Assembly: GCA_020241125.1 (NCBI GenBank)
Contig: GCA_020241125.1_4708.1
Direction: 5' to 3' (one strand)
Source of the DNA: a phage
DNA length: 64,000 nt
The translations under genes were made by a program, and so were the position numbers. Below, one piece after another: positions 3,145 through 63,987 of the stretch (position 1 is its first letter; every line of letters starts with the position of its first letter). The notes beneath the pieces are model-generated. The model ran no database searches. It worked only from the letters and a program-made list of their open reading frames with translations, and was not told where the DNA came from.

Positions 3145-3602
3145 GATTCGTAACCACCTTCATGTGGTAACGTATTGCTGGTGTCAGGCCAAACGAGCTG
3201 AATACCCGCAACCTTTTTACCATATCGAGCGAAAGCCGCTATCGCATACACTTCGTTGAAGGATTCAATATCCTCTATTTCACGCACGTCAAGACGCAAG
3301 GTTTCACCCGTACCTTTCAGAGTTAGATTGCCATCGAACGCGCCTAACGGGATGGTCTTTGCCTTCACCATGAAGTTACCCAGTTTGTTGATTGCTGAAC
3401 CGAGAGCAGGGCAATAACCGGATACGAAGATTTCCGGCATTCCGTGTTCGGTTAGACCAACAGTATACATAAAGCCAGGCTCGTCGCTTCCCTCATCAGG
3501 AGCGACACTGATAATAGCCCATTGCTTTTTCTCGATATATTCTTCGATAAAATCGTCCAGTTTTGAAAAATTGTTTTCATTAAGTTTAACTGTGTTACTC
3601 AT
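3117..3602 (-). CDS. hypothetical protein (161 aa)
   Basis: ORF track, dominant strand. Confidence 0.55.
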   Translation of the reverse strand: MSNTVKLNENNFSKLDDFIEEYIEKKQWAIISVAPDEGSDEPGFMYTVGLTEHGMPEIFVSGYCPALGSAINKLGNFMVKAKTIPLGAFDGNLTLKGTGETLRLDVREIEDIESFNEVYAIAAFARYGKKVAGIQLVWPDTSNTLPHEGGYESCCCPQILL

Positions 3603-4927: not shown

Positions 4928-5555
4928 TGATACCTTCTATTAGTTGTACAGCAACTTCTTTTTCGGTGCTATAAAAGAACTTGCGATGGAACTGAACAAG
5001 AAGTTTTTCGAATTTACATTGAACGATCTTTTTGCGTTCGATATGACCCAGGGAGAGCAAAGCACCCATGCAACGTACCGCTTGTTCGAGAACTTGTTTC
5101 GCGGTATCGTGATCGTCCGGTAACGGTAAATCTTCCTCATCGTCTTTAGCGATAAGGCGTCTGATGATGTTATCGATACGTATCTCATCACCGTTAATAA
5201 AAGCCCCCTTCTCCCAGTCATCGAATCGTTGATGGATTCGACGTTGTAAGTTGGCCCTGTCTTCCATTAACTCTTTCAACTGGCTTTCTAAATGGGATAC
5301 GGTACGGCGGTCGGTTTCAGTGAAGTTTTCCGATTCTTTGTACCACCAATCATTACGCGATAGTAAATCGTTAACGCGCGAAATCGTCCGACGACACTCA
5401 CTAACAAGCCCGTCACCATTCGGTAGCTCTGTACCAAAATAGCATTTGTATTTATAACGCATAACACGGATTAAACGTTTCGCTAGAAAACCTTGCCTTT
5501 CCAGTTTCTTCTTCAGTTGTGTGTATTTCTCTTCTTTTGTTTCCATTAATTCCAT
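4914..5555 (-). CDS. hypothetical protein (213 aa)
   Basis: ORF track. Confidence 0.55.
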   Translation of the reverse strand: MELMETKEEKYTQLKKKLERQGFLAKRLIRVMRYKYKCYFGTELPNGDGLVSECRRTISRVNDLLSRNDWWYKESENFTETDRRTVSHLESQLKELMEDRANLQRRIHQRFDDWEKGAFINGDEIRIDNIIRRLIAKDDEEDLPLPDDHDTAKQVLEQAVRCMGALLSLGHIERKKIVQCKFEKLLVQFHRKFFYSTEKEVAVQLIEGINEVK

Positions 5556-5944
5556 GATGTTGTACCTCGTTCAGCAATCAGGAGAGTCGTGGTTGTGCTT
5601 TTCACTAATCTATTAAAGTCTTGATATATCCGCCTGAGGGATGATTTCAAATCACAATAACGGCTGAAATAAACCTTCAAGTCATCTTTTGTCACAGTCT
5701 CCGTATTTATTTTCGTAGAAACACCGAGATCGATAAACTCTTTTCTTAATTGGGATAATTCATCAAGAAGTCGATGATGGCTTAGATAAATAACAGATTT
5801 ATCGGATAACAACTCGCCGGTTATCCGGCTCTGGCGTTCATCGAAATATTGGAGCCGCCATTCAATTCGCTTACGTAATTTATCAAGTAAATCAACAAAA
5901 GCGGTATAGCTGTTAACGGCTAGGTTAACTTGACTCGTTATCAT
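5546..5944 (-). CDS. hypothetical protein (132 aa)
   Basis: ORF track. Confidence 0.5.
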   Translation of the reverse strand: MITSQVNLAVNSYTAFVDLLDKLRKRIEWRLQYFDERQSRITGELLSDKSVIYLSHHRLLDELSQLRKEFIDLGVSTKINTETVTKDDLKVYFSRYCDLKSSLRRIYQDFNRLVKSTTTTLLIAERGTTSWN

Positions 5945-7216: not shown

Positions 7217-8236
7217 TTACACCGCCACCTTAGCCTTGATAGCGGGGTGTGATTGATATCCGACGAACACAAAGTCTTCGTAACGGTAATCCGTAATACT
7301 TTCTGGTTTACGTACGATTGTTAGCTTCGGTAATGGATACGGCTCACGACTAAGTTGTTCTTTAACCTGTTCGAAATGGTTGTGATAGATATGACAATCT
7401 CCACCTGTCCACACGAACTCACCAACGTCCATATTCAGCTGTTGGGCAAGCATATGTGTTAACAACGAGTATGATGCGACGTTAAAGCTCCAACCCAAGA
7501 GCGTGTCGCACGAACGTTGATAAAGCTGACAGGATAAAGCACGTGTTGGTACGTTATGCGCATTCAACCAGAGTTCTGTTTCACTGTGTCGTACATCATC
7601 CGTAACCCACTGGGTTCTTAGTACGTCATTGCGCTGGACATAATCAACGCGTTCATCGATCGTGAGTTCGTGGGTATAGAACTGATAGAATGAATGGCAC
7701 GGAGCGAGATGCATATCGTCTAAATCACCTACGTTCCACGCGCTAACGATGATTCGTCGAGAATCAGGATCTTCTTTGAGTTGACGCATCATGTTTGCGA
7801 TTTGGTCGTGGTGTTTAACATACAAGAGATGTTTGACCATACCGGCGTCAACAACACCGCAATACTCATAGCCGCGTTGCATCAACTCACGAGTACGTTC
7901 TGTATCATGCGGAACAACCACTTTGTAGTCAATCCATTCTCGCCATTGTCTGCCGTAAATCGGTCCTAGATTCCCTTCCTTATCAGCCCATTCATTCCAA
8001 ATACGAACACCGTTATCTTGAAGATAAGCAACGTTTGTGTCGCCGTTAAGAAACCAGAGCAGTTCGTGGATAACGCTCTTAAGGTGAATCTTCTTGGTGG
8101 TTACCAGCGGAAATCCTTTCTTCAAGTCAAAACGCATCTGACGCCCGAATACCGAACGGGTCCCGGTGCCCGTGCGGTCGGCCTTATCGCGACCGTTATC
8201 CATGATGTCTTGCAAAAGGTCCAAATACTGTTTCAT
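7217..8236 (-). CDS. thyA: thymidylate synthase, ThyA family (339 aa, two insertions relative to E. coli ThyA)
   Basis: [31 protein letters not shown]...[12 protein letters not shown]...[30 protein letters not shown]...[11 protein letters not shown]...SFNVASY...[16 protein letters not shown]; catalytic Cys in the PCH motif and the dUMP-specifying Asn are present. Confidence 0.9.
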
Positions 8237-8509: not shown

Positions 8510-9394
8510 TCAATAACGACCGTAGCGTTCCTCGAGCCGTTTTGGTTTTCTCAGAAGGCTATCTTTAAGTGGTACGACGTCGATATCAACACTCTCTGAG
8601 TAATAGCCGTTAGAACTACCATACCAACGGATAACAACACAACCCTTTGCAGTACGGATATGGTAAAATGTCCATTGTATACGTTCGCTGTAATAACCGT
8701 AGTTATCGGTTCTTTCCTCGGTTCTTTCTTCAGCACTGAGTATCTTTTCACCGATGATATCATTAATATCGCCGTCAATGTCTTCAAGATACACCTCTTC
8801 GCAGCAATCCTGCTGATGACAGAATTCGACAACGTTTCCATCACCACGATAGAAAAGAAGGGCGATACCGTTTCGTAATTGCTCGCTCGTTACATCAGAC
8901 ACACAATGCAAACTTTTATCGTCGGTAATCACCAAGACGTTGTTGATTACATGTCCGGCAAGCGCTCCGATCTTATTTACCGTGATAATCGGACGAACCG
9001 GTTCAGATTGAACGATAGGAATACGGACACAACCAATTAAAGCCATCCGTCCTTTCTTTGGTCTAACCGCAAGATACGGTGATTTTCTTGGGTGGTTATG
9101 TAGTCGTATTTCTACTTCGTTGAATTTAATCCCGTATGAACACAGAAAATAATTGAATAGTTTACGGAATTCCTCGGTTGCTTCTTGCAACGTGATGTTA
9201 TTTACTGTGAGTTTATGTCCCCTGAACACCCGGGTTAGATCGATAACATCCAGCGTTTTGAAATATATTTCCGTAAGGGGATGACCTGTGTATTCCAGGC
9301 AAGTAATTGTTCTTTGAACCACGATTTTAGGTTGTGCACCTTTAAAACGTTTCAGGTATTTAACACGATAGCGTGTATGATCTGATGTTAACAT
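8510..9394 (-). CDS. hypothetical protein (~294 aa; start moved to internal ATG with GGAGAGGAG RBS)
   Basis: ORF track 8510..9493; the longer N-terminus would overlap a terminator hairpin. Confidence 0.5.
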   Translation of the reverse strand: MLTSDHTRYRVKYLKRFKGAQPKIVVQRTITCLEYTGHPLTEIYFKTLDVIDLTRVFRGHKLTVNNITLQEATEEFRKLFNYFLCSYGIKFNEVEIRLHNHPRKSPYLAVRPKKGRMALIGCVRIPIVQSEPVRPIITVNKIGALAGHVINNVLVITDDKSLHCVSDVTSEQLRNGIALLFYRGDGNVVEFCHQQDCCEEVYLEDIDGDINDIIGEKILSAEERTEERTDNYGYYSERIQWTFYHIRTAKGCVVIRWYGSSNGYYSESVDIDVVPLKDSLLRKPKRLEERYGRY

Positions 9395-9467
9395 TTTAAT
9401 CTCCTCTCCCGACTTCAGAGAATTCTTAAAATCCGTTAGTTTTGATAGATAGGGTAAGACGGCATAA

Positions 9468-9490
9468 AAGCATCCCATTACGGGATGCTT
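9468..9490 (-). terminator. hairpin (AAGCATCCC/GGGATGCTT) with UUUUAUGCCG tail in minus sense
   Basis: Inverted repeat directly after stop of 9502..10050. Confidence 0.5.
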
Positions 9491-9501
9491 CATTAATCAG
9501 C

Positions 9502-10747: not shown

Positions 10748-11047
10748 TTACTGAAACAAGACATTAAATTCGACAAGATACCCATCGGATCTATCACCAC
10801 GATATCTGTTGCAGAAAACACCGAATTTCATCAAGAACGCACATAACTCTTCGGCTTTGTATAACGGAATACGATTTTCGTCGAGCAGAGGGCAACTATG
10901 GCTAACCCGCTCCGACGAATCAACGCAACACAAATAAAGAAGGAACCGAACAATAGCTCGGTTCTTAGTGAAGCTCTCGAATTCACCCGCAGTTCTGAAC
11001 TCATCGAGGAGCTTTGTCGTTTTCTTCAATCGTTCACGATCGAGCAT
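10748..11047 (-). CDS. hypothetical protein (99 aa)
   Basis: ORF track. Confidence 0.45.
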   Translation of the reverse strand: MLDRERLKKTTKLLDEFRTAGEFESFTKNRAIVRFLLYLCCVDSSERVSHSCPLLDENRIPLYKAEELCAFLMKFGVFCNRYRGDRSDGYLVEFNVLFQ

Positions 11048-11110
11048 GTTAACCTCAATACGAACATAACCCTCCTCCTTCCCTGTTGGGTTGGAGGAGG
11101 GAATATGCTG

Positions 11111-11425
11111 TTATTCTGTTTTCGGTGTTGAACCGTTCTTCTTGAAGTCGGATTCGTATTTCACGTTAGAATCGAGAACCTCACGAACGGTTTTATCCGT
11201 ACAACCACGAGCGATGTATGCATTAAGATCATCACGTAATTTACGCATCGTTGTTTTATCCGCATCAGAAACATCTGACTTGGTAAGACGGAATGCGATT
11301 GCATCGCGAATTTTATTCAACGTTGCTGGGTTATTACGCTGTTCTGCAAATACCGCTTTGATGAACTTATCGCTATCTTTCGAAGCAATAGCAGCATCAA
11401 GAATCTCAATATGCTTTTCAGACAT
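11111..11425 (-). CDS. hypothetical protein (104 aa)
   Basis: ORF track. Confidence 0.5.
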   Translation of the reverse strand: MSEKHIEILDAAIASKDSDKFIKAVFAEQRNNPATLNKIRDAIAFRLTKSDVSDADKTTMRKLRDDLNAYIARGCTDKTVREVLDSNVKYESDFKKNGSTPKTE

Positions 11426-18530: not shown

Positions 18531-19217
18531 TTAACACATGATTTCACCATGTTTCTTTTCAACATACGTATAAACATCATCCAAATAAGCAATGAGTTTA
18601 TCACGATCCGCACAGAGCGATTTAATCATCGCAATCTCTTTCATATAAAGCTGCTGACCTAACGCCGGATAGGTAATCCAAGCGTAGCCGTCAGGCGCAA
18701 ATTTAGAAATAAGATAATCGGCGGTTTCCTGTAATGCGAACTCTTTGCTCATCTGGCCGTAACGATGTTCGATTGCACGGATACCAAAACGTTCGCTATC
18801 GAGACGGCCCATATCCGCCAGACGAAGCACTTGAGAGGCAACCGAACTACGTGGACCAGAATACGAGGCACGATGTTCAGCAATAAGTACGCGTATCTCC
18901 TCGATGTCTTCCGGTGTGAAAATATGCTGCTCGTTACGAAGCAGGATAACCGATGCACGAATACCCCCGATAAGGTGGTGGTATGTTCTGTTTTCGTGGC
19001 AAGCGATATCATGCATAAATGCAGCGGTTAATAGACGACGACGTTCCGTGGGTCTGATGATCCCAACCACATCAGCAAGTTCATTTGCCAGTTCAACAAC
19101 GGCAAGCACATGTTCTTCTTGATGTGCAAGATCGTTCTTCCGAATATTTTCAATTACTTCAGCGCGAGTTTCCCGAGATAAGAAATTTAAACAATCCAAC
19201 GAATATAAAGATTTCAT
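18531..19217 (-). CDS. hypothetical protein (228 aa), possible HD-motif hydrolase
   Basis: AAFMHDIACHENRTYHH contains an HD dyad (weak); AAAGAGG RBS; promoter-like motif 40 nt upstream. Confidence 0.5.
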   Translation of the reverse strand: MKSLYSLDCLNFLSRETRAEVIENIRKNDLAHQEEHVLAVVELANELADVVGIIRPTERRRLLTAAFMHDIACHENRTYHHLIGGIRASVILLRNEQHIFTPEDIEEIRVLIAEHRASYSGPRSSVASQVLRLADMGRLDSERFGIRAIEHRYGQMSKEFALQETADYLISKFAPDGYAWITYPALGQQLYMKEIAMIKSLCADRDKLIAYLDDVYTYVEKKHGEIMC

Positions 19218-19262
19218 TGCACGTACCTCTTTGAATCTATTAATAAATTTTCTTTACTCACG

Positions 19263-19282
19263 TAAGTAATATAGCCGTGAAA
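19263..19282 (-). promoter_or_regulatory. conserved promoter-like motif, copy 1 (minus sense TTTCACGGCTATATTACTTA)
   Basis: One of four near-identical copies; TATATTAC core ~40 nt upstream of ATG at 19217. Confidence 0.5.
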
Positions 19283-19361
19283 GGATTTGTGTTGGTCCGT
19301 TTCGATACCCATCGTATTTTATGGATTGTCGAATGACGTCATTTTAAGGGACATCCCCGGC

Positions 19362-19395
19362 CTCCTCCCCAGGAAAGGTGTGGGGAGGAGTTTTT
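19362..19395 (+). terminator. plus-oriented terminator-like hairpin (CTCCTCCCC/GGGGAGGAG + TTTTT) in a divergent intergenic region
   Basis: 9-bp stem followed by T5, ~30 nt upstream of the SNF2 ATG; function unclear. Confidence 0.35.
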
Positions 19396-19425
19396 ATCAT
19401 ACATTCTATTAAATCGAGCGCGATT

Positions 19426-21507
19426 ATGTTGGATAGAATCAATCGTTTAATGAACCGAATAGCGGTTAAAAATCAGAGTAACAATACCGTGCATATCGGG
19501 GGTATCGATGCCTGGCGTCTTTCAGATGACATTCAGCGAATATGGGGTACCTCCCGATTTATGAAACACATGTTTCGTAATTTCTCTTCCAGTGGTCTCA
19601 GTCTCCACAACTTTTACCTTCCCGATTTCGTTTATATTCTCGAAACGATCATCGAGGCAAAGAATACTCGCAGTAATAAACGCATGCTGAAACACCTTAT
19701 TGAGGTACTGCTGCAGGAAACCTGGTTGCAAAATACCACAATCGAGCAACCTGCAATCCTCGATAAAGCACGCATGAACAAAATGCTAACGCTCTCCCTG
19801 TTCGATTATCAAGATGAGTTTATCGACATCTATAACCGTAACGTACCTAAATATCGACTGAAAGGATACGTGTGTGCGATGGGTGCGGGTGCCGGTAAAA
19901 CAATCACCGCGTTGGCTTTAAGCGCCGCAATGAACGTCGACGTATTTGTGGTCTGCTGTCCTAAGAACACCATGCGTTCAGCATGGCAATCCGATGTAAA
20001 CAAAGCCATCGTTGACCCCGCAACAGAAACCGCATTCTGGTCAGATACAATGCCACCGTCACAGCTGCAGAAAAGCGATAAGTATTATTTTCTGCATTAC
20101 GAGTCGATGGGTTTATTAAACGATGTAATGATCAAGCATAAACGCACCGCGAAGCGCGTGTTGATCGTGGTTGATGAAAGCCATAACTTCAACGACAAGA
20201 ACAGCCAACGTTCCCAACGACTGGTTGATCTCGTACAGACGATGCGTCAGACCATGAATGCGGATGTGCATGTCTTGTTTATGTCGGGTACGCCCGTTAA
20301 ACAGATGGGTTCTGAGATGATCCCCTGTTTAGGTTGTATTGACCCGATGTTCCAAGGACAGGTGGTCGATAGCTTCAAAGCAATTTACGGTTTAACCAGC
20401 AGCCGCGCTAACGATATCCTCAGACATCGTCTTGGGTTCATGATGCATGTTGTACCTAAAGAGGCTTATCGTAAAACCCGGCCGGAAGTTCAGGACGTTT
20501 ACGTGAAGCTCCCTAACGGTAGCGATTATACCATCTCGAGTATCCGCGACGACATGGCGATATTCGTACGCGATCGGGCGAAGTATTACAAGGATAACTG
20601 GGGGCATTACAGAAAGATTTTTGATGACGCCTTGGACTACTATCGTAAGACTATTCGTACCGATGGTGAACGTAAAGAGCTATCTCGATACGAATCGATT
20701 GTTGCTCGTTTCCAGAAAGGTTACGACCCCGTCAGAGACAAAGAAGATGCGATGTTCTGCAACGCGTTTGAAAAACGTTCTATTATGCCGGTTCTTCCTT
20801 CTGATTTAAGGGTTGCTTTCAAAGACGCCAAGAGCGTCATCAAGTACGTTGGGTTGAAAATTCAGGGTGAAGCGTTGGCGCGTGTTCTAGGTGCAGCCCG
20901 CATTCGGTGTCATGTCGACATGGTGGAGTACATCGACTTCGAAGGGTACATCAATAACGCTGAAGCCAAGGTGTTGATCTTCACGTCGTACGTTCAGGTG
21001 GTTGAGCGTGTCGACAACATGCTTCGCGATGCCGGTTTCTTACCGGAACCCATTTACGGGAAGACCAACAAGAACATCAACCAGATACTTGCTCGCTTAC
21101 GCGATGATCCTGACAGCGGTCCCGCTATCGCAACATTTGATAGCTTAGCCGAAGGGGTTCCGATGTTGATGTGTAACGTGGGTCTCTTCTTGAACAACCC
21201 ATGGCGTTCATCCGATGAAATCCAAGCCATCAGCCGTCTCGATCGTGTAGGGCAAACGCAACCTGTTCGGATTTATCGTTTCATGTTAGATACAGGAAGC
21301 GAGGGTAACGTTTCTACACGTAGCCACGAAATCATGGAGTTAAGTCGACAGCTTGTTGAAGAAATCACAGGCGTCAAATACGTGGTGAACAAGCAAGATG
21401 CTGTTAACTTGCAGGAAACGTTGGCGATGGAAGGATACGATCAATACGTTACCGTAAACACCACGGAATACGATATTAAACCACGACCTGCGTTCTTGGA
21501 ATGGTGA
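19426..21507 (+). CDS. SNF2-family helicase/ATPase
   Basis: GAGAGKT (Walker A), VVDESHNF (DExH), SGTPV (motif III), QAISRLDRVGQTQPVRIYRF (SNF2 motif VI). Start placed at first ATG; the track ORF starts at an upstream GTG inside the hairpin. Confidence 0.75.
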   Translation: MLDRINRLMNRIAVKNQSNNTVHIGGIDAWRLSDDIQRIWGTSRFMKHMFRNFSSSGLSLHNFYLPDFVYILETIIEAKNTRSNKRMLKHLIEVLLQETWLQNTTIEQPAILDKARMNKMLTLSLFDYQDEFIDIYNRNVPKYRLKGYVCAMGAGAGKTITALALSAAMNVDVFVVCCPKNTMRSAWQSDVNKAIVDPATETAFWSDTMPPSQLQKSDKYYFLHYESMGLLNDVMIKHKRTAKRVLIVVDESHNFNDKNSQRSQRLVDLVQTMRQTMNADVHVLFMSGTPVKQMGSEMIPCLGCIDPMFQGQVVDSFKAIYGLTSSRANDILRHRLGFMMHVVPKEAYRKTRPEVQDVYVKLPNGSDYTISSIRDDMAIFVRDRAKYYKDNWGHYRKIFDDALDYYRKTIRTDGERKELSRYESIVARFQKGYDPVRDKEDAMFCNAFEKRSIMPVLPSDLRVAFKDAKSVIKYVGLKIQGEALARVLGAARIRCHVDMVEYIDFEGYINNAEAKVLIFTSYVQVVERVDNMLRDAGFLPEPIYGKTNKNINQILARLRDDPDSGPAIATFDSLAEGVPMLMCNVGLFLNNPWRSSDEIQAISRLDRVGQTQPVRIYRFMLDTGSEGNVSTRSHEIMELSRQLVEEITGVKYVVNKQDAVNLQETLAMEGYDQYVTVNTTEYDIKPRPAFLEW

Positions 21508-21513
21508 TTAAGA

Positions 21514-21552
21514 AGCTCTGCCTGATGTCAGGCAGAGCTTTATGCTGTATTT
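21514..21552 (+). terminator. intrinsic terminator (12-bp perfect stem AGCTCTGCCTGA/TCAGGCAGAGCT + TTATGCTGTATTTG)
   Basis: Directly after SNF2 stop. Confidence 0.7.
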
Positions 21553-21607
21553 GTTGCAAGATCGTATGACGTATATGCGTCGTAATTATTAAAATAGGGC
21601 AAAATAC

Positions 21608-23062
21608 ATGAAACTCAAACAAAGCTGGAAAGACGAACTTCTCGCGTTAGTAAACAGCAAAAACAGTTTACAACTGACATTAGACGATGTAAAATTTGAA
21701 CTAACGGCACCGGTAAGCGAAGTGCCTGGAACGGTCGTTGTTACAATCAAACCGAACGATAATAGTCGCTACTTTAACGAGCAGTCTCTGACCTACATCC
21801 GTCGAGACATCGCTAAAAACTTCACCGGGATCCCGTTACGGGTTATCGTTAAGCAAGATACCGCTGTAAGGGATATCATCAATACGATTGCTGAACGTTA
21901 CGGATTGGTATTTGACACAGCCGTCGACTTCCTCGAATCCGAGCTGAATAAACAAATTACGTTCGCAGACACCGGTATTAAAGACATTACGGTTCCGGTT
22001 GCAAACACGTCTTATGTTTGGGCGGGTAATCTTCAGTTCAATATTGCTAACGATACGTTAAGCTTGATTACTATCATCAAGAAAACCGATCTTACGAATC
22101 TGGTTTATCTGGATGGTGTTGAAGCTGACACATCTGGTTCGTTACTATTAGCAACCGCAGCACTTGTTAACGAACACGTAAATGAACCGATGGTTGAAAA
22201 CGAAGATATCGTTAATGAATTTATTAACGTTCTTAATACTCTAGCCAAATATGGTGACATAACCGGCGATGAATTAGATGCCGCCTTACAAGCGTACGAT
22301 GAAGCAGAAAACAGGAATAAAACCACGGTAATAACTCTTGGTGATATCCAGTGTGTTGCAACAGAAAAAGACGATTGGGAAATTGGACGTTTACGCGGTC
22401 AGATGGTTCTCGCGCTCAAATCCGATAAATACCCGGAGCCCGATAACACGTTCAGGTTGTTTACGAATGGTGGTGACGTATCGCTAACGTTAAACACAAT
22501 GAAAGATATAAGTATCGATTGGGGTGATGGGAATAAAGTAACGTTGGATGCTGAAGAAAGATACGCGCACCACACATACGCCGACAATAACCAGTACCAA
22601 ATCGAAATTGTGTCTCGTACGGACCCAGATGTGCTGCGACCAAATTATATTTCTGGGAGTGAGATAACCGAAGTAATTCACTGGGCTACTACTTCAACAA
22701 TAGCTCTGAATTTTGTTGGATGCGATAATTTAGCGACTGTTCCAGATGAGATCCCAACTTCGTGGACAACGTTGGACAGCATGTTTGAAAGTTGTACGAA
22801 TTTGAATGATCCGTCTATCTCTAACTGGAATACAAGTAACATCACATCAATGAATGGTATGTTCGGCGGATGCACTAAATTTAACCAACCTTTAGCTGCC
22901 TGGGATGTCAGCTCAGTAACTGACATTGGTGGTATGTTTAACGGATGCAACAGTTTTAACCAAGATTTAAGTGGGTGGCGATTACCGTCAGGAGTAACCC
23001 ACGACAATTACGATAGTGGTGCTTTCTCGTGGCAGACGGAACATAAACCGACGTTCCAGTAA
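21608..23062 (+). CDS. protein with C-terminal DUF285/BspA-type leucine-rich repeats (484 aa)
   Basis: C-terminal repeats NFVGCDNLATVPDEIPTSWTTLDSMFESCTNLNDPSISNWNTSNITSMNGMFGGCTKFNQPLAAWDVSSVTDIGGMFNGCNSFNQDLSGW match the FxxCxxF-NQDIS-xWDVSxVTxMxxMF pattern. Confidence 0.7.
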   Translation: MKLKQSWKDELLALVNSKNSLQLTLDDVKFELTAPVSEVPGTVVVTIKPNDNSRYFNEQSLTYIRRDIAKNFTGIPLRVIVKQDTAVRDIINTIAERYGLVFDTAVDFLESELNKQITFADTGIKDITVPVANTSYVWAGNLQFNIANDTLSLITIIKKTDLTNLVYLDGVEADTSGSLLLATAALVNEHVNEPMVENEDIVNEFINVLNTLAKYGDITGDELDAALQAYDEAENRNKTTVITLGDIQCVATEKDDWEIGRLRGQMVLALKSDKYPEPDNTFRLFTNGGDVSLTLNTMKDISIDWGDGNKVTLDAEERYAHHTYADNNQYQIEIVSRTDPDVLRPNYISGSEITEVIHWATTSTIALNFVGCDNLATVPDEIPTSWTTLDSMFESCTNLNDPSISNWNTSNITSMNGMFGGCTKFNQPLAAWDVSSVTDIGGMFNGCNSFNQDLSGWRLPSGVTHDNYDSGAFSWQTEHKPTFQ

Positions 23063-23083
23063 AAAAAAAAATAGTTAGCATAT

Positions 23084-23122
23084 CTTCCTCCCTACCCATA
23101 ACGGGCGGGGAGGAAGGTTTTA
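23084..23122 (+). terminator. intrinsic terminator (CTTCCTCCC/GGGGAGGAAG + GTTTTATGG)
   Basis: Follows stop and an A11 run at 23061-23071. Confidence 0.65.
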
Positions 23123-24431: not shown

Positions 24432-26006
24432 TTACAATTCAAAATCTTCATCGATAACGCGCTGGGTAAGCACTTTGTCGCTGAAGAACTCCACCTTGCG
24501 CTGATGGTATTTACGATGTGCTTCTATCGAAGTACATACCAGATACCAGAACGTTGGTGTCATTCCTTCAAACTTCCCTTTCAGCTGACGTAGCCGTCCC
24601 AACACCTGAATGTTACCGGTTCGTGACCCCATCGCTAACGTCATGAACGTCATCACCAAGTCAGGAAGGTCGATGCCCGTACCTGCCGATTTCACGGTTG
24701 TAACGCTAATATCGTTATCCAACAAGACCATGAAATCTTCTTCAGCAGTATAAGGACCAATCTCTAACTCAGGAATACGTTCACTGAGATAATGCGACAA
24801 CGACTTACACATATCGACGGTTGCACAATACACCAGCATCTTCATACCTTCCTGATACTGGTTCATGAAACCTTTGATTATAACGGTATAGATGAAGTTA
24901 AAGTACGCGAGTTTGAGTTGCTTGTTCTTCATGATAGACTGTTCGAATATCGTGTGAGAATAAGAACCCCCAAAGCCTTTGTATCTGACTTTATCTGTAC
25001 TGCGTAGTCGATACGTCACGGCATTTACCGCAATGTATTTCTTGTATTCGCATTTCGCATAACGTGCTTCTTTCGGATACATCAAATACAACATCCGCTC
25101 GATGAACGGATCGTCGGACACCGCCGTTGCTGACAGATAGATGATTTCCGGAATATTCGCGTAGCACTTCACTTTGAACAAGAAATGCAAAGCTTCGTGA
25201 CATTCGTCATGGATTAACAACCCAATGCCTGTTTTCTCCCAGAACTCGACTGGATGGAAAACATACGGTGCGACACAGTTGTTCTTTTCATAATCGGTTA
25301 TGTATCTCTGAAACATGTTCAGTGAGAATAACGCAATTTTGAAATCCAGCTCACCTTGTTCCACCAACATCTGGAATTCCAGCATGCTGTAACGAGGAAT
25401 GTCGGGATGCGGTGGGTCAGATTGGGCTGTACCGCGTATCTCGATAACATCACCTGGTTCCATACCGAAGAAACTTAGCAACGAGCTGCGCCATCCAGGC
25501 ATGTATCTCGGTGACAGAATAATGCCCGTCCGTACACCACGTCGGAAAGTGATCTCCTGCGACATGGCTGTTTTACCACTGCCCGTGCCTGCGGTGTTTA
25601 GGCTCATTCTGAAGGGGGTATCCTTACCCCCGTCCATGTACTCCAACCATTCTTGCTGATCTTGACGCCATGGAAACTTCCATTTCTTTACGAACTCCAC
25701 TTCTTTACCTGGTACCGGATCGTGATAGACGATTTCCAACCACTCTTTTCGTATCCCTCGAGAAAAGATAAAATCCAAAAACGATTTCAACTGTTCACGG
25801 AGTAAGTATACCTCGCTATAATCGCTTCTTGCCGCGGCATACGTGTTTATGGTATCGGTAACCATTCTCCGTGTACGAGGATCGCGTCGTTTCCTCAGAT
25901 GCAAACAACGGTCTCGAAGGTAATGGCCGATAAGATGGGCAAATCGAAGTCCGTATCCGCTCAGCCTCATGCCGTGCGAGAAGACGTCGATACGAGCTAA
26001 CTTCAT
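24432..26006 (-). CDS. superfamily-2 DExH-box helicase (524 aa)
   Basis: NTAGTGSGKT (Walker A), LLIHDECHE (DExH), LSATAV (SAT), TVKSAGTGIDLPD (motif V), QVLGRLRQ (motif VI). Confidence 0.75.
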   Translation of the reverse strand: MKLARIDVFSHGMRLSGYGLRFAHLIGHYLRDRCLHLRKRRDPRTRRMVTDTINTYAAARSDYSEVYLLREQLKSFLDFIFSRGIRKEWLEIVYHDPVPGKEVEFVKKWKFPWRQDQQEWLEYMDGGKDTPFRMSLNTAGTGSGKTAMSQEITFRRGVRTGIILSPRYMPGWRSSLLSFFGMEPGDVIEIRGTAQSDPPHPDIPRYSMLEFQMLVEQGELDFKIALFSLNMFQRYITDYEKNNCVAPYVFHPVEFWEKTGIGLLIHDECHEALHFLFKVKCYANIPEIIYLSATAVSDDPFIERMLYLMYPKEARYAKCEYKKYIAVNAVTYRLRSTDKVRYKGFGGSYSHTIFEQSIMKNKQLKLAYFNFIYTVIIKGFMNQYQEGMKMLVYCATVDMCKSLSHYLSERIPELEIGPYTAEEDFMVLLDNDISVTTVKSAGTGIDLPDLVMTFMTLAMGSRTGNIQVLGRLRQLKGKFEGMTPTFWYLVCTSIEAHRKYHQRKVEFFSDKVLTQRVIDEDFEL

Positions 26007-32274: not shown

Positions 32275-32628
32275 ATGTCTAACACGCCCCTGAACGACTT
32301 TCTTAAGACAAACCCCGATGACCTCATCCACGATCTTGATTTCAGGAACGTTGTTGAGATGCATCTGGAATATTTCAAAAATGCCGGACTGGTCTCTACG
32401 ATAGACATACCACCCGAACGCGCCTACGAATTCGATGGTAACTTTTATGGATTGTGTCGTGTTCTGCTTGGCGAGGGCAGTGAACCAATGCACTGGATAA
32501 CCATGAGACTCAATGGTTATCGTGACCCTACGGAATACACCGCCGATGTTCTAACCATGAAGATTGTCGATACAAGCGCAATCAACACATTAAAACAACA
32601 GTACCGCACAATCCACTACAGCGCTTAA
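32275..32628 (+). CDS. hypothetical protein (117 aa)
   Basis: Plus-strand ORF with GAGGT RBS and a terminator right after its stop. Confidence 0.45.
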   Translation: MSNTPLNDFLKTNPDDLIHDLDFRNVVEMHLEYFKNAGLVSTIDIPPERAYEFDGNFYGLCRVLLGEGSEPMHWITMRLNGYRDPTEYTADVLTMKIVDTSAINTLKQQYRTIHYSA

Positions 32629-37204: not shown

Positions 37205-37257
37205 AACAACCTCTTTTCGCGGTTCCCTGTTAAAACGTCTTCTGTGACGTCTACCAC

Positions 37258-37280
37258 AAAGGTAATATAAGCGTGAATAA
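37258..37280 (-). promoter_or_regulatory. conserved promoter-like motif, copy 2 (minus sense TTATTCACGCTTATATTACCTTT)
   Basis: TATATTAC core ~58 nt upstream of ATG 37204. Confidence 0.5.
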
Positions 37281-42450: not shown

Positions 42451-42540
42451 TTTACTATCCTCGGATTTCGTTAGGATTTAATTTCCAATATAAGGGCAAT
42501 GTGATATGCCTTATACAGTCGATTGATGTTGTACATCACT

Positions 42541-42560
42541 TAAGTAATATAGCCGTGAAA
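42541..42560 (-). promoter_or_regulatory. conserved promoter-like motif, copy 3 (minus sense TTTCACGGCTATATTACTTA)
   Basis: Identical over 20 nt to copy 1; ~85 nt upstream of ATG 42450. Confidence 0.5.
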
Positions 42561-44346: not shown

Positions 44347-44696
44347 CACATATCTTCAGTATGAATCGCTACTTCATACCCGCAGCATTACCTGCAGCTC
44401 CTGGTGTTACCAGGACGGAGAGATCATCTCATCACCCACGAAGGGTGTTCCGCGCTACCCTCAGCGAATTCGAGGGACATGATCGTTGAACCTTCCACCG
44501 ATAATCGGTGGCTAGGCTGCTGATTAAACATTGTACGTTGGGGTGGCATCCTGGTTCAGGACTGTCGTTGAAGCCTCCCAACATCCACTCACTTATTTCC
44601 GCCTTATCGGCTCCCATAAGGGCAGAGTGGCTTTAGCCCGTCTCAGCAATTCACGGAATTCAAGCTCTTCCTTTCAGAAGGCAGGGCCTCATCTGA
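44347..44696 (-). other. putative self-splicing intron (group I-like, 350 nt, no ORF) interrupting the beta' gene
   Basis: Exon 1 frame ends ...KGYNA and exon 2 starts DFDGD, restoring the YNADFDGD motif; 5' exon ends in U and insert ends in G; insert carries GGUUCAACGAUCAUGUC and AAGAUAU near its 3' end (resembling group I R and S elements) and several stem-loops (CCUGGUAACACCAGG). Confidence 0.55.
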
Positions 44697-47935: not shown

Positions 47936-48004
47936 TTGGGATTCCTCTTTTCTTAAACTTTATTAAATGACGTCATTGAATCAGCTTCTACTCGCTCATT
48001 CACC

Positions 48005-48024
48005 TAGGTAATATAACCCTGAAA
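48005..48024 (-). promoter_or_regulatory. conserved promoter-like motif, copy 4 (minus sense TTTCAGGGTTATATTACCTA)
   Basis: TATATTAC core ~73 nt upstream of ATG 47935. Confidence 0.5.
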
Positions 48025-48189: not shown

Positions 48190-49284
48190 ATGTTTCGTGT
48201 TTTAAATAACCTCCCGCGAACATCATCGGGTGTGCAACCCGTCCCTCAGAAAGACTATCTAATACGCGAAGTTCAAAGAAACCTACAGACAATCCAGAAC
48301 CACTATCAAGGTTTTACCTTCGCGGTTCAGAGCGATCACATCCTTGCGTTGCTGCTCGCACAGCTCCCTATGAGATACGACATCTCAGTACAAACTTACT
48401 ACGACATGATTCTCGATCTTACTCCAGAATTGGGTAATCGTGTTAAGTTGACAACATCAAGATACGCGGGTAAGTTATTCGACGGTGCTTTCTATCCGGG
48501 ATTGCACGAAGCTATTATCGCAACCGGTGAAAGTCGTCTTATTTCACGTGACGTTCTTGACAACTGGCGTAATTGGTCACCGGTTAGAATCGTGACGCAC
48601 CCATACGCAAATCTTCGTTACATTCCTCTTCACCGAAAGCCGGTTGAAGAAGGACGAGGTTTTGCGGTCATTATGGTTGATGTACCTTTATTAGCGCTAC
48701 AGTATCGAATGTGGTCTTTGGTCATGGGTCATAACGTCGACGGCAAATGGGTGGTTAAAGAACCGGTTACAAGCTTCCTTGCGAGTTTTCCGTTGGTTAA
48801 CGCATTATACTCACACAACGATGTTGTTATACGCAATCGTTGTTTGTGGGTATCTCCGGCTAAGAATCCACTCAAATCACCAATTTACGTTAACGACCTT
48901 GATAACGTATTCAGTCAAGTCGTTCTGTCCGTACAGCATCATTTATTACGAAGAAGACGAAGCTACACCGACATGCTTAAACAGATACCGAGTTTATACG
49001 GGGATCAGTACCAAGCAACCCGAATGGGTTACACCGTCGATCTTCGGCAAACGCGATGGGCAAGGGATCTGGGTTGTCTGTCATTATGGCAACAACTCGT
49101 CACGTTGCAAAACGTATCTGAAAGCGTCGGGTTCAGCAGTCAAATCGATAATGACCTGTACCGTGCTGCCGACCGGAGTCTAAAAGAAGGTAACTGGGAG
49201 TCCTCTCCGTTACCTGGCGATTTAAGACGTGAAGTTATCGCACAGGTTGCCGACCTCTTAAAAATTCTTCCCGCTGGTGCATAA
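48190..49284 (+). CDS. hypothetical protein (364 aa)
   Basis: Plus ORF with GGAG RBS; divergent from the 631-aa gene. Confidence 0.55.
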   Translation: MFRVLNNLPRTSSGVQPVPQKDYLIREVQRNLQTIQNHYQGFTFAVQSDHILALLLAQLPMRYDISVQTYYDMILDLTPELGNRVKLTTSRYAGKLFDGAFYPGLHEAIIATGESRLISRDVLDNWRNWSPVRIVTHPYANLRYIPLHRKPVEEGRGFAVIMVDVPLLALQYRMWSLVMGHNVDGKWVVKEPVTSFLASFPLVNALYSHNDVVIRNRCLWVSPAKNPLKSPIYVNDLDNVFSQVVLSVQHHLLRRRRSYTDMLKQIPSLYGDQYQATRMGYTVDLRQTRWARDLGCLSLWQQLVTLQNVSESVGFSSQIDNDLYRAADRSLKEGNWESSPLPGDLRREVIAQVADLLKILPAGA

Positions 49285-56937: not shown

Positions 56938-57780
56938 ATGGGTGCTATTGACTACAGTGTAGATCGTATCTGTCGTACAATACCGGCAGATATCCTACAG
57001 TATTGCTATATCGATCGTTACGACTGGCGTAATCGCTATCCTCGTTCCGTAGAAGACATCATTACCGATTGGGTAATCCGTAAACGGGTTATCGGCGACA
57101 TCGATATCTACGGGGGACTACAAACCGTTATTCCCCTTGATGATGCAGGTGTCACAATCGAAGAAGTCACCATTAACTGTTATGTTTTCCACATTCCGTT
57201 GGAAGCCACACAGGGACGTTATATCACGTCCGCATTATCCATTATTTCAGGGAGCGTGAACAACTACGGAATAAACTATAACGGGCAATGGGGCGCTTTC
57301 AACCAAACCCAATTTCAACGTCAGCTTTGTGGGTGGAACCCCGCAAGCAACACGTTACAGCAAGGGATGAACGCGTTCGGTCCCATGAACGTTCTTAGTA
57401 CAGCCAACGTTGATATCATCGCCCCTAACACCATCATGGTGAACAACGTCACGCCTGTACAATTTCCCCTGAGCCTACGCTGTTTCCTTGCCCACGATCC
57501 GGAACTTACCAACCTCAGCATGGAGGTTTGGAACGACTTCTACAAACTCTGTTTATACGCCACGCAAAGTGACATCTACAACAGAACCGTTATCCGTCTC
57601 GATAGAGGTGTTACAGCACAAGGACAAGAAGTCGGTGCATTCAAGGAATACATCGATCGCTTTGCTGATGCTGAAAACACATATCAGGAATTCCTGAACG
57701 AAACGTGGGCTGGCGTTGCTGCCTGGAACGATCCACAAACTAAACGTCGCGCCATTCGACTACAAACCGGTTACTTCTGA
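56938..57780 (+). CDS. hypothetical protein (280 aa)
   Basis: Plus ORF with AAAGGGG RBS; terminator follows. Confidence 0.55.
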   Translation: MGAIDYSVDRICRTIPADILQYCYIDRYDWRNRYPRSVEDIITDWVIRKRVIGDIDIYGGLQTVIPLDDAGVTIEEVTINCYVFHIPLEATQGRYITSALSIISGSVNNYGINYNGQWGAFNQTQFQRQLCGWNPASNTLQQGMNAFGPMNVLSTANVDIIAPNTIMVNNVTPVQFPLSLRCFLAHDPELTNLSMEVWNDFYKLCLYATQSDIYNRTVIRLDRGVTAQGQEVGAFKEYIDRFADAENTYQEFLNETWAGVAAWNDPQTKRRAIRLQTGYF

Positions 57781-58307
57781 TTAACGACAGCTTCCTCCCT
57801 CGGTGTTTTCGAGGGAGGTATTTGCCGTTTAAACACTTTCAGCACGTTCGCAAATTCAGCGGCAATAATACAGGCCGAGGTTGATAGCTTATTACTGAAA
57901 ATGAGATCGTCCGGTAAACAATCGAACTGAATACCGTATTGCGTCTTTGTCTCATCAACGATCAATGACGGTGTCGATCTTGTCTTCGCGATGTCGGTGA
58001 TATACAAACGTAGAAATAATTCACCGTCTTCGCTATCCATAAAACGATAGGCGTTACCAGAAAACGCAACACATGGCGTAACGATAAATTGAACACGATC
58101 GTCGGTCGGATGGATATTTAACCAACGTTCGATATCATTACTACTCACATTTCGCATATTTACTACGGTAAAAGCAAATAGCGTATCGTGATGTTTGGAA
58201 TAATGCAGCACGTACGCCGCACCTTTCTTTCTGTGAATCCCTTCAATGTATTCTATTGTCGTATAGCCGGATTTATATAGCTTTACTTGCGGTTTATCAC
58301 TCATCAT
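57771..58307 (-). CDS. hypothetical protein (~178 aa; start at ATGATG with GGGAAGGG RBS)
   Basis: Track ORF 57771..58388 overlaps the upstream gene; internal start chosen. Confidence 0.4.
   Translation of the reverse strand: MMSDKPQVKLYKSGYTTIEYIEGIHRKKGAAYVLHYSKHHDTLFAFTVVNMRNVSSNDIERWLNIHPTDDRVQFIVTPCVAFSGNAYRFMDSEDGELFLRLYITDIAKTRSTPSLIVDETKTQYGIQFDCLPDDLIFSNKLSTSACIIAAEFANVLKVFKRQIPPSKTPREEAVVNQK
57794..57830 (+). terminator. intrinsic terminator (CCTCCCTCG/CGAGGGAGG + TATTTGCCGTTT)
   Basis: 14 nt after stop of 56938..57780; overlaps the 3' end of convergent minus ORF. Confidence 0.6.
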
Positions 58308-62742: not shown

Positions 62743-63987
62743 ATGCTCATGTCTTCTATTTTACAGGTGTTTAATGCGCATGCGGAAGGCATTGACATCG
62801 ACGAGTATTTTGTTAATCAGGTTATCCGTTACGCGACACGCTTCCGTACGCAAGACCAAGAACACATGCGTTTTTTCGGTGGGGTTCTGTTAGGTGTACA
62901 GAAAATCCGATTCACAACAAGACATAACGATACATGGTTTTCCGACGTCTTGATGATGGATGAAGAAAGCTTACGGCGCGATTTGAGTAAACTACCCTTC
63001 TACAATACGCAGACCAACCGTGTTGCCTCAAACGCCTTTAACCTAAGTTGCTGTTGGTTGCTTTATGCGATCTTCCACAGCAAACAAATCAAAAAAGAAA
63101 AGGTTCGTGAAGCCGGGATGCTTGCAGCAATGCAAGTCCTCCATTATAAATTCATTTGCGGTCTGGTAGCACGACGTTATCCTTATAACGCCGATCCGGC
63201 TATCGCCATTAAGGCGTACGATGAGTTAACCCTCAAATCAGGCATCAAGCGCATGAATAGCTGGAATGAGTACATCGACGAACGCTGTAACGCCATCATT
63301 GCGCGCAATAGCACGCATCTCAGTCGCTGGTCAACCCTGGAACCAGATAGTGTCGCCGAACGTTTTGTGCGTGATGTGAATACCGGAATCCGTAAGGTTA
63401 TCAACCGTATCACCGATACGTACTATGCGATGTATGAAGAGGGTAAGAAGATAGGCACGTCCTCTCAAACTGTAGAATTAGACGACGGCCTCGCTGTTCG
63501 CGATATCAAACGCAACGAAACCACTTATCGTCAATATCTGTTCGAAATCGCTTATGACCGAACAAGTTTCGTTAAACGTGAACTCATGGTCGTCATCCTC
63601 GACGTGCATCATACTACCAATCTTTTATCCCTTGAGCGAGCGTTAAGCTATATCAGCGCTAACGTAGAACGACCGACAAGAGACGGAAAACAGGTCTCTC
63701 AGATGTTGCGGCTTGTAATGGAGCATGCTATCGAGTATATCATCTTGAATAAGGTCGATATGCGCGATCTTACGTTCTTATTCTACATGCGTAACGTGTA
63801 CACGTCCAACCGTACCAGCAACCCGAAACTGTTAGAACTGCGTAAACTTGGCTCTGAAGTCATTAAGAAAGCAACCAACGCGAGAAACGACGCTGAAGCT
63901 GCAGCGACACGTACCGGTGTCTTTCTGTATATCCTGCTTCGTGTGTTTAGCCGTAACTATTACGTTCGACGTGCGATGTCACGTTAA
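62743..63987 (+). CDS. hypothetical protein (414 aa)
   Basis: Plus ORF with GAGGGA RBS. Confidence 0.55.
   Translation: MLMSSILQVFNAHAEGIDIDEYFVNQVIRYATRFRTQDQEHMRFFGGVLLGVQKIRFTTRHNDTWFSDVLMMDEESLRRDLSKLPFYNTQTNRVASNAFNLSCCWLLYAIFHSKQIKKEKVREAGMLAAMQVLHYKFICGLVARRYPYNADPAIAIKAYDELTLKSGIKRMNSWNEYIDERCNAIIARNSTHLSRWSTLEPDSVAERFVRDVNTGIRKVINRITDTYYAMYEEGKKIGTSSQTVELDDGLAVRDIKRNETTYRQYLFEIAYDRTSFVKRELMVVILDVHHTTNLLSLERALSYISANVERPTRDGKQVSQMLRLVMEHAIEYIILNKVDMRDLTFLFYMRNVYTSNRTSNPKLLELRKLGSEVIKKATNARNDAEAAATRTGVFLYILLRVFSRNYYVRRAMSR

Follow-up and report, generated by a model that had tools for sequence, protein, structure and literature searches.

Host recognition by nucleus-forming jumbo phages is poorly understood, and the DUF7941 filament idea, which has been put forward for Escherichia phage vB_EcoM_Goslar, is new. 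According to that report (Basu et al. 2026, bioRxiv 10.64898/2026.04.21.720040), virions of Goslar contain ten DUF7941 proteins, purified gp22 forms filaments as seen by negative-stain electron microscopy, and phiKZ gp126 and gp127 have been modelled into density at the outer peripheral baseplate. The same report describes gp161, present at about 111 copies per virion, as a combination of the DUF7941 module with carbohydrate-binding and leucine-rich-repeat domains that may recognise the host, assigns carbohydrate-binding or glycoside-hydrolase heads to gp86 and gp92, and counts proteins without the C-terminal domain, such as gp23, among the family. The analysis presented here concerns a 64,000-nucleotide stretch of phage DNA (GenBank assembly GCA_020241125.1, contig GCA_020241125.1_4708.1; hereafter the window), whose source is a close relative of Goslar, itself a nucleus-forming jumbo phage. 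In the window, two plus-strand open reading frames (ORFs) form an island at 19362-23122 amid minus-strand genes: ORF A, which encodes an SNF2-family ATPase, and ORF B, the counterpart of gp161, with three hairpins, T1, T2 and T3, placed before ORF A, between the two genes and at the end of ORF B (Table 1). The locus and its architecture are those of Goslar gp161 and its neighbour, and the N-terminal anchor of ORF B is 97% identical to that of gp161, but its C-terminal head, at only about 39% identity, is of another cassette type, a polymorphism that the available portion of the report, in which gp161 appears three times, does not mention.

ORF B resembles the fibre cassettes of tailed phages in its conserved N-terminal attachment part, its divergent C-terminal binding part, its sharp breakpoint and its history of recombination. 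Exchange of host-range cassettes of this kind is well known from the distal fibre and adhesin genes of T-even phages and from tail-fibre receptor-binding proteins. ORF B differs from such fibres in that its anchor is a module expected to polymerise head-to-tail into long flexible filaments rather than a trimeric shaft, in that its head would form a side-branch on the polymer, and in the BspA-type leucine-rich-repeat fold of that head. Compared with the BspA-like, DUF285 or PARCEL surface proteins of Mycoplasma, Listeria and Bacteroides, ORF B carries about 100 residues of repeats, and these are found on a phage virion protein instead of a bacterial lipoprotein or adhesin.

The helicase encoded by ORF A also has described counterparts. 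Goslar gp160 has been detected in virions by mass spectrometry with 15 peptides, at about 10.6 copies per virion, as given in bioRxiv 10.64898/2026.04.21.720040. A green fluorescent protein (GFP) fusion of RAY gp131 localises with capsids, and gp131 falls outside the strict core set of Prichard et al. (PMC10299810). The phiKZ protein gp203 undergoes processing, is a packaged head component and is found with the pelleted DNA after capsids have been broken, and its gene tolerates transposon insertions (PMC12676376).

The head cassette of ORF B

The divergence between ORF B and gp161 begins abruptly: the identity of 97% covers residues 1-183, and that of about 39% covers residues 184-484. The head cassette gives no blastn match to Goslar, although its flanks are 96% identical. 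In comparisons with four other cassette types, nucleotide identity in a 150-nt sliding window, otherwise about 95%, is down to 33-67% over exactly the interval 22150-23030 and rises again at the terminator. The segment 22156-23029, in which nucleotide identity is about 45%, is the sole equal-length replacement relative to Goslar in the 64 kb. More than 100 clusters of ORF B homologues derive from contigs some 235-247 kb long. When alleles of about 480-513 aa are compared, with a 584-aa paralogue left out, the anchor is 86-98% identical and the head 36-100% identical, with at least five head types carried on one backbone and an identity gradient of 39-82% among the types.

Nei-Gojobori estimates of synonymous and non-synonymous change bear on the origin of this pattern. 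Between the Goslar-like loci L009 and L011, the synonymous rate (dS) is 0.04-0.13 in three flanking genes and the anchor, while the proportions of synonymous and non-synonymous differences (pS and pN) in the head reach 0.80 and 0.39; because the synonymous sites of the head are saturated and the flanks are nearly identical, recombinational exchange is indicated rather than divergence in place. The window phage and L011, whose backbones stand at dS 0.33-0.48, have one head type in common, with dS 0.16. The ratio of non-synonymous to synonymous rates (dN/dS) is 0.50 in the head versus 0.02-0.08 in the flanks, site entropy within one head type is about tenfold higher at residues 300-400 than in the anchor, and variation in the commonest head type is clustered at residues 306-320, 333-350, 363-372 and 467-473. 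These sequence comparisons show that the head varies by recombinational exchange accompanied by relaxed or positive selection, and ORF B combines the conserved anchor, the divergent distal domain and the recombinational history that characterise an exchangeable-head protein. The exchangeable cassette is what is new in this locus; the rest is known biology of an already annotated gene pair, encountered in a new strain.

The N-terminal half of ORF B, which an initial annotation of the island had left to profile analysis, proves to be a DUF7941 module of the kind that forms baseplate filaments. The match to DUF7941 (PF25613) covers residues 4-189 and stops at profile position 195, whereas Goslar gp22, gp31, gp33 and gp34 span positions 3-275, and ORF B, unlike these four proteins, is without the globular domain that the family has at its C terminus (profile positions of about 196-276). 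The module matches PHROGs named "virion structural protein", is paralogous to the same four Goslar proteins of the baseplate/fibre gene block, and superposes on the baseplate domain of phiKZ gp127 in structure comparison. In the AlphaFold2 model, which has a predicted local distance difference test (pLDDT) score of 82, exceeding 90 from about residue 280 onwards, a folded part (residues 1-160) is followed by a disordered linker (161-176), helices (179-232), a beta region (239-360) and a very confident C-terminal solenoid. The BspA-like repeats claimed in the initial annotation are borne out by a DUF285 match at residues 387-461, and the DUF285/PARCEL repeats of ORF B form a leucine-rich-repeat solenoid. 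A second DUF7941-DUF285 gene, the 584-aa paralogue, is present in some Goslar-like genomes (L005, 8001-13348, GCA_961210045.1, a 235,874-bp contig); its anchor is about 56% identical, and downstream of it lie a 175-aa DUF7941 gene and a tail-fibre gene of 967 aa whose product has a Peptidase_S74 chaperone domain.

ORF B would accordingly be pictured as a component of the DUF7941 "fibre cloud", with its N-terminal domain and linker building it head-to-tail into filaments that attach to the peripheral baseplate, and with the distal beta-sandwich and leucine-rich-repeat head displayed so as to bind a host surface ligand; host recognition is probably the role of the gp161-type head. Homology arms that let related phages swap heads and retune recognition would be provided at one end by the anchor-coding region of about 550 nt and at the other by the last 11 codons, T3 and the next gene. 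The reading as a whole, in which a gp161-type gene supplies a plug-in head on a polymeric filament, heads are traded across a fixed anchor, and the head is the main adsorption determinant on Enterobacteriaceae, with a circuit of T1 and a nearby palindrome as a possible second layer, is put forward tentatively and falls somewhat short of being probable.

Several points weigh against it. A Foldseek search with the middle domain of ORF B returned nothing significant, and the filament model is itself partly speculative. L008 carries a nonsense allele at codon 277, which together with shorter variants suggests that the head may be lost, and one head type spans assemblies labelled E. coli, Shigella, Salmonella and Enterobacter, and no simple link between head and host is visible. 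On the regulatory side, the TATG element from which ORF A might be transcribed is too short for a promoter call, and the U tract of T2 is poor.

According to one alternative, which we consider unlikely, the head varies to escape host immunity and not to change receptor: exposed or injected ORF B would be sensed by a defence or surface-exclusion system, and the leucine-rich-repeat domain would serve otherwise or be purely structural. The raised dN/dS, the patchy and localised variation, the occurrence of head types with no obvious link to the named host of the assembly and the persistence of truncated alleles would all fit such a role. However, a conserved anchor joined to a distal binding fold is the classic layout of a receptor-binding protein, the DUF7941 proteins gp86 and gp92 of Goslar carry sugar-directed heads in the description cited above, the paralogue of ORF B lies in a tail-fibre gene cluster, and no defence system is known to sense the ORF B family. 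Divergence of the head in place, whether by a raised rate of point mutation or by the action of a targeted mutator (a diversity-generating retroelement, for instance), is very improbable: the short patches of amino-acid change and the identity gradient among types are compatible with it, but the contrast between head and flanks in L009 and L011 contradicts it, only exchange explains why the heads of the window phage and L011 are younger than their backbones, and the window holds no second copy of 22101-23062 beyond chance matches of 13-14 nt, so that a retroelement, which would need a template copy, is unlikely. The Goslar annotations that were inspected include no reverse transcriptase, the whole genome not having been searched for one.

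The exchange of heads between otherwise near-identical genomes provides independent evolutionary evidence that DUF7941 filaments face the host, and the anchor, cassette and conserved 3' edge together make up a small and precise unit whose swapping could be used to engineer the host range of Goslar-like phages or to predict it. Overall, the biology of the locus is ordinary, with one useful lead on host range.

The SNF2 helicase and the nature of the island

ORF A is 99% identical in amino-acid sequence to Goslar gp160, and the SNF2 identity initially proposed for it is upheld by matches to the Pfam families ResIII, SNF2-rel_dom and Helicase_C, all above their cut-offs. The motifs GAGAGKT, DESH, SGTP and DRVGQ, seen directly in the sequence, place it in the SNF2 family of superfamily 2 (SF2) ATPases, and its C-lobe matches the SWR1, ISWI, SNF2 and DDM1 chains among structures in the PDB. 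A tblastn search returned 205 phage records, 202 of which are full length (90-100% of the query), compared with 102 records for chimallin in the same kind of search. The homologues range over the phiKZ-like, 201phi2-1, PhiPA3, EL, OBP, Erwinia, Vibrio, Aeromonas, Klebsiella and Ralstonia groups and include Pseudomonas phages. Identity to the chimallivirus SNF2 helicases is 30-39% over the full length (E 1e-84 to 1e-149), and full-length homology and inverted orientation are shared with phiKZ gp203, 201phi2-1 gp300, EL gp166, RAY gp131 and OBP gp263, which makes ORF A a full-length orthologue of the phiKZ gp203 group; the 201phi2-1 annotation itself ties gp300 to phiKZ gp203 and EL gp166.

In four distant phages, RAY, 201phi2-1, OBP and Aphrodite1, the SNF2 gene runs opposite to the genes around it, and its downstream partner varies by genus (Table 1). 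The partners are unrelated to one another and encode different virion proteins, with proteins of no assigned function in RAY and 201phi2-1; RAY gp130 and 201phi2-1 gp298 and gp299 were considered as DUF7941 proteins and rejected, as they contain no such domain. Because the gene is widely conserved and inverted in these four phages, it is not an accessory acquisition. ORF A is the counterpart of phiKZ gp203, an SNF2-type DNA-dependent ATPase packaged in the head. About ten copies would be ejected with the genome, where the protein could act as a translocase or remodeller of double-stranded DNA on the incoming molecule, either to strip off packaged proteins or to assist the injected RNA polymerase. 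Since phiKZ can do without the gp203 gene, this role is probably conditional.

ORF calls agree with the initial annotation in placing two plus-strand genes amid minus-strand genes. Its statement that the coding strand flips only here in 0-32 kb holds for sizeable genes and fails for a 77-aa plus-strand ORF at 10898-11131, which corresponds to Goslar gp145. Further along, single-gene plus-strand islets recur at 32.3, 48.2, 56.9 and 62.7 kb, and their Goslar counterparts are all virion proteins, identified by cryo-electron microscopy or mass spectrometry: gp172 is located in the inner baseplate and gp233 in the neck, and gp245 and gp224 are present at about 16 and 37 copies per virion, respectively. 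Goslar gp159, the minus-strand HD protein, is found at about 1 copy per virion, which corresponds to background level. Coding strand in this region tracks virion versus non-virion function, and because the other sizeable plus-strand genes there encode virion proteins, the island is one of several virion-gene islets in a non-structural block. The minus-strand "block" itself seems to be composed of two units with the island in the gap between them, because the right unit is predicted to end at T3 and the left unit to begin at the promoter motif at 19273. We therefore regard the island as probably a native islet of virion-protein genes, namely a packaged SNF2 helicase and a DUF7941 filament protein with a swappable head, organised as two independent transcription units that share orientation and not function. 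The earlier suggestion of a separately regulated module gains indirect support from the two flanking minus-strand units, the contrast between virion products and background-level products, and the presence of one hairpin per gene.

The initial annotation had also called the module possibly accessory. In a fuller version of this view, the unit would be a horizontally acquired, two-gene accessory cassette working as one system, for example an SNF2 ATPase with a repeat-protein sensor in defence or counter-defence, a proposal that we hold to be very improbable. It draws on the opposite orientation, the bracketing hairpins with similar CCTCC/GGAGG arms, weak NCBIfam matches of the C-lobe to the DISARM DrmD, Dnd and Dpd helicases, the label "DarB-like antirestriction" that some databases give to homologues, and the dispensability of phiKZ gp203 (PMC12676376). 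Against it, the GC content of the island (0.42-0.47) equals that of its flanks, with GC skew positive only over 20-23 kb, and the NCBIfam scores lie far below the cut-off (38 versus 610 bits). T2 divides ORF A from ORF B, the two proteins reside in different parts of the virion, and the partner gene changes between genera; with the sub-cut-off matches, this led us to reject a functional operon of SNF2 and repeat protein or a defence system. The similar stems of T1 and T3 belong to the general terminator style of the phage and are not flanking repeats, and a profile search found no mobility genes in the island. The initial annotation had named core-gene-like conservation of position and sequence in all relatives as the finding that would tell against its reading, and synteny comparison places the island at the same position in all seven (7/7) Goslar-like loci examined; with the flank-like GC content and the family-wide conservation of the SNF2 gene, this led us to reject a mobile island. 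The word "accessory" therefore fails for the helicase, an ancient and widely conserved virion component, and applies only loosely to ORF B, whose slot varies across genera and whose head is swapped. No paralogue of ORF A or ORF B was found within the window.

Table 1. Features of the island, of the rest of the window and of the SNF2 loci compared (window coordinates)
Feature	Position	Strand	Description
ORF A	19426-21507	+	693 aa; SNF2-family ATPase; orthologue of Goslar gp160
ORF B	21608-23062	+	484 aa; DUF7941 and BspA-type repeats; matches Goslar gp161
ORF B residues 1-183	21608-22156	+	DUF7941 N-terminal domain and disordered linker; conserved anchor module
ORF B residues 184-474	22157-23029	+	Head cassette: helical segment, beta-sandwich(es) with PKD-like WGDG...H.Y motif, BspA/DUF285 leucine-rich-repeat domain
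ORF B last 11 codons and stop	23030-23062	+	Conserved 3' edge of cassette; nucleotide identity recovers from here
T1	19362-19395	+	Hairpin 19362-19390, 10 bp, with T5; 31 nt before ORF A start; -20.6 kcal/mol, z -2.1
T2	21512-21541	+	Perfect 13-bp hairpin, then TTTATGC; between ORF A and ORF B; -23.7 kcal/mol, z -5.3
T3	23061-23121		A11, 13-nt spacer, imperfect 15-bp hairpin 23082-23118, TTTT; end of ORF B
Hairpin + TTTATG[CG] sites	9468, 17443, 21539, 23119, 29609, 43409, 51575, 55623, 61536		Window scan
Early-type promoter motif TTTCACGGCTATATTACTTACGTGA	19258-19282	-	Points left into HD-domain gene 18531-19217; predicted start of left minus-strand unit
25-nt motif copies	19258-19282, 37254-37278, 42536-42560, 48000-48024	-	One precedes the HD-domain gene (19273), one the chimallin gene
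TTTTATG	19316-19322	+	Candidate late-type start (T-3 A T G+1) for ORF A
Palindrome AATGACGTCATT	19332-19343		2 exact copies in 64 kb; the other at 47966-47977
Other plus-strand genes	32275-32628, 48190-49284, 56938-57780, 62743-63987	+	Goslar counterparts gp172, gp245, gp233, gp224
RAY gp131		inverted	gp130 downstream
201phi2-1 gp300		inverted	gp299 and gp298 downstream; all detected in virions (gp300 by mass spectrometry)
OBP gp263		inverted	gp262 downstream, weakly like internal head proteins
Aphrodite1 gp181		inverted	No downstream partner

Hairpins, promoter-like motifs and predicted regulation

Promoter-proximal terminators have been described upstream of the major capsid gene of 201phi2-1, where they have been linked to timing control (PMC11512511). 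T1 is similarly placed, between a putative promoter and a virion-protein gene, with the difference that the 201phi2-1 terminators were mapped with transcript ends, whereas the promoter and T1 termination in the window phage are predicted from sequence. As the initial annotation stated, the unit begins after a hairpin with T5 (T1) and the palindrome AATGACGTCATT, both of which were located. Its further statement that the unit ends with two strong terminators is correct in that both hairpins are real, and needs amending in that T3 alone ends the unit and T2 sits between the genes. The automated terminator scan missed all three hairpins owing to its loop and tail rules. The start codon of ORF A is likely the ATG at 19426, not the GTG at 19378, which lies within T1.

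Several changes in relatives leave the pairing of the hairpins intact. In T1, the closing A-U pair is replaced by G-C through a double substitution in L009 and L011, and in L008 (about 3330-3360) the loop is replaced by roughly its reverse complement with the stem kept; T2 retains a shorter stem in L006 through paired changes; and in L011 (about 7480-7520) the inner part of T3 is inverted, with the outer stem and its pairing kept. The changes in T1 (L008) and T3 (L011) look like the products of hairpin-mediated inversion. Perfect-stem hairpins with a T-rich tail facing the plus strand are limited in the window to T1, T2 and one at 57794, after a plus-strand gene, and T1 is marked as a terminator in the Goslar annotation. 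T1 and T3 fit the form of a hairpin with a U tract, whereas T2 has only UUUAUG after its stem. A second form, a GC-rich hairpin followed by TTTATG[CG], which includes T2 and T3, is found at some ten places in the window, in most cases immediately behind a gene, and many of the stems have CCTCC/GGAGG arms; it may represent the phage's own terminator consensus, or a terminator coupled to a late start. T1 is probably a promoter-proximal (leader) terminator or an insulator. T3 is predicted to terminate ORF B and may, in addition, halt the minus-strand unit that converges on it: it folds at -28 kcal/mol on the plus strand (z -5.6) and -25 kcal/mol on the minus strand (z about -5.5), and because the minus-strand T run lies 13 nt from the stem, action in both directions is uncertain.

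Upstream of the island, the left minus-strand operon appears to start at a TATATTAC early-type promoter at 19273. TATATTAC is the phiKZ early promoter core; a full-text search for it gave only unrelated papers. It belongs to a 25-nt motif, TTTCACGGYTATATTACYTAnGTGA, of which the window contains 4 copies, all on the minus strand and 56-101 nt upstream of minus-strand start codons. In jumbo phages that have RNA polymerases of their own, the early promoters used by the virion RNA polymerase are marked by a conserved AT-rich motif with its centre near -10, and the late promoter consensus of phiKZ is a TATG overlapping the transcription start (PMC7598289). In Goslar-like phages, the 25-nt motif probably serves the virion RNA polymerase as its early promoter.

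Transcription of ORF A would begin at a late start of the TATG type near 19322, which would place the palindrome and T1 in its leader. The SNF2 genes of 201phi2-1 and RAY are preceded by CCCATCATTTTATG and GTTTTATG, and that of the window phage by ACCCATCGTATTTTATG; positions 19312-19361 are nearly invariant across seven Goslar-like loci. Upstream of five plus-strand virion genes, only TATG is enriched, at about 10 occurrences in 900 nt versus 3.5 expected by our own count, a difference that is not conclusive. The 13-mer TTTTATGGATTGT was considered as a shared signal and dismissed as chance, its second copy, at 32443, lying within coding sequence and its choice having been made post hoc.

The second copy of the palindrome lies in the chimallin leader, between an early-type promoter and the start codon, and both copies are found in divergent intergenic regions that carry an early-type promoter. 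By our own arithmetic, a 12-mer specified in advance would occur a second time with a probability of about 0.004-0.008. The palindrome is invariant in all Goslar-like loci, and behind the promoter at 37269 there is a related GACGTC core. The 10-nt core of the palindrome is also found within coding sequence in Goslar (L004) and RAY (L003), which leaves a weak case. Neither T1 nor the palindrome is present upstream of the SNF2 genes of RAY, 201phi2-1, OBP and Aphrodite1. T1 and the palindrome shared with chimallin could belong to a circuit, based on antitermination or a repressor, that governs when the packaged helicase is expressed. From within the leader, T1 would limit or time ORF A expression. 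T2 would then separate the two transcription units, with ORF B restarting from three TATG sites after T2, an arrangement that fits the approximately tenfold higher copy number of gp161 relative to gp160.

The remainder of the window

Goslar is the sole megablast match of the segment 19000-23500, at 96% identity over 81% of the query, and the whole window is collinear with Goslar 116-192 kb in blastn, at 93-98% identity with few exceptions. Positions 1-660 have no blastn match in Goslar, and two whole-ORF insertions, at 5545-5940 and 8510-9404, correspond to minus-strand ORFs missing in Goslar, one of 132 aa (5546-5944) and one encoding a 327-aa protein with a DUF7448 domain (8510-9493). Conversely, the group I intron with an HNH endonuclease gene that Goslar carries at its RNA-polymerase beta-subunit gene (gp186, Intron_gpI; 168194-169661, about 1.47 kb) is absent from the window, in which the junction at 44689/44698 reveals an intron-less allele.

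To the right of the island, a minus-strand SF2 helicase gene (24432-26006) is the homologue of Goslar gp164. The protein is 524 aa long in the window phage, Goslar and L010, and 753 aa in three Goslar-like phages (L009, 8826-11087; L006; L011), where the additional stretch of about 229 aa lies exactly within Walker A (TGSGK|T), a typical site of intein insertion; a Pfam search gave no match. Near-complete Goslar-like genomes, on contigs of 235-247 kb, are numerous in metagenomes and in public assemblies that bear the labels E. coli, Shigella, Salmonella and Enterobacter, and the group is far commoner than its two phage records suggest.

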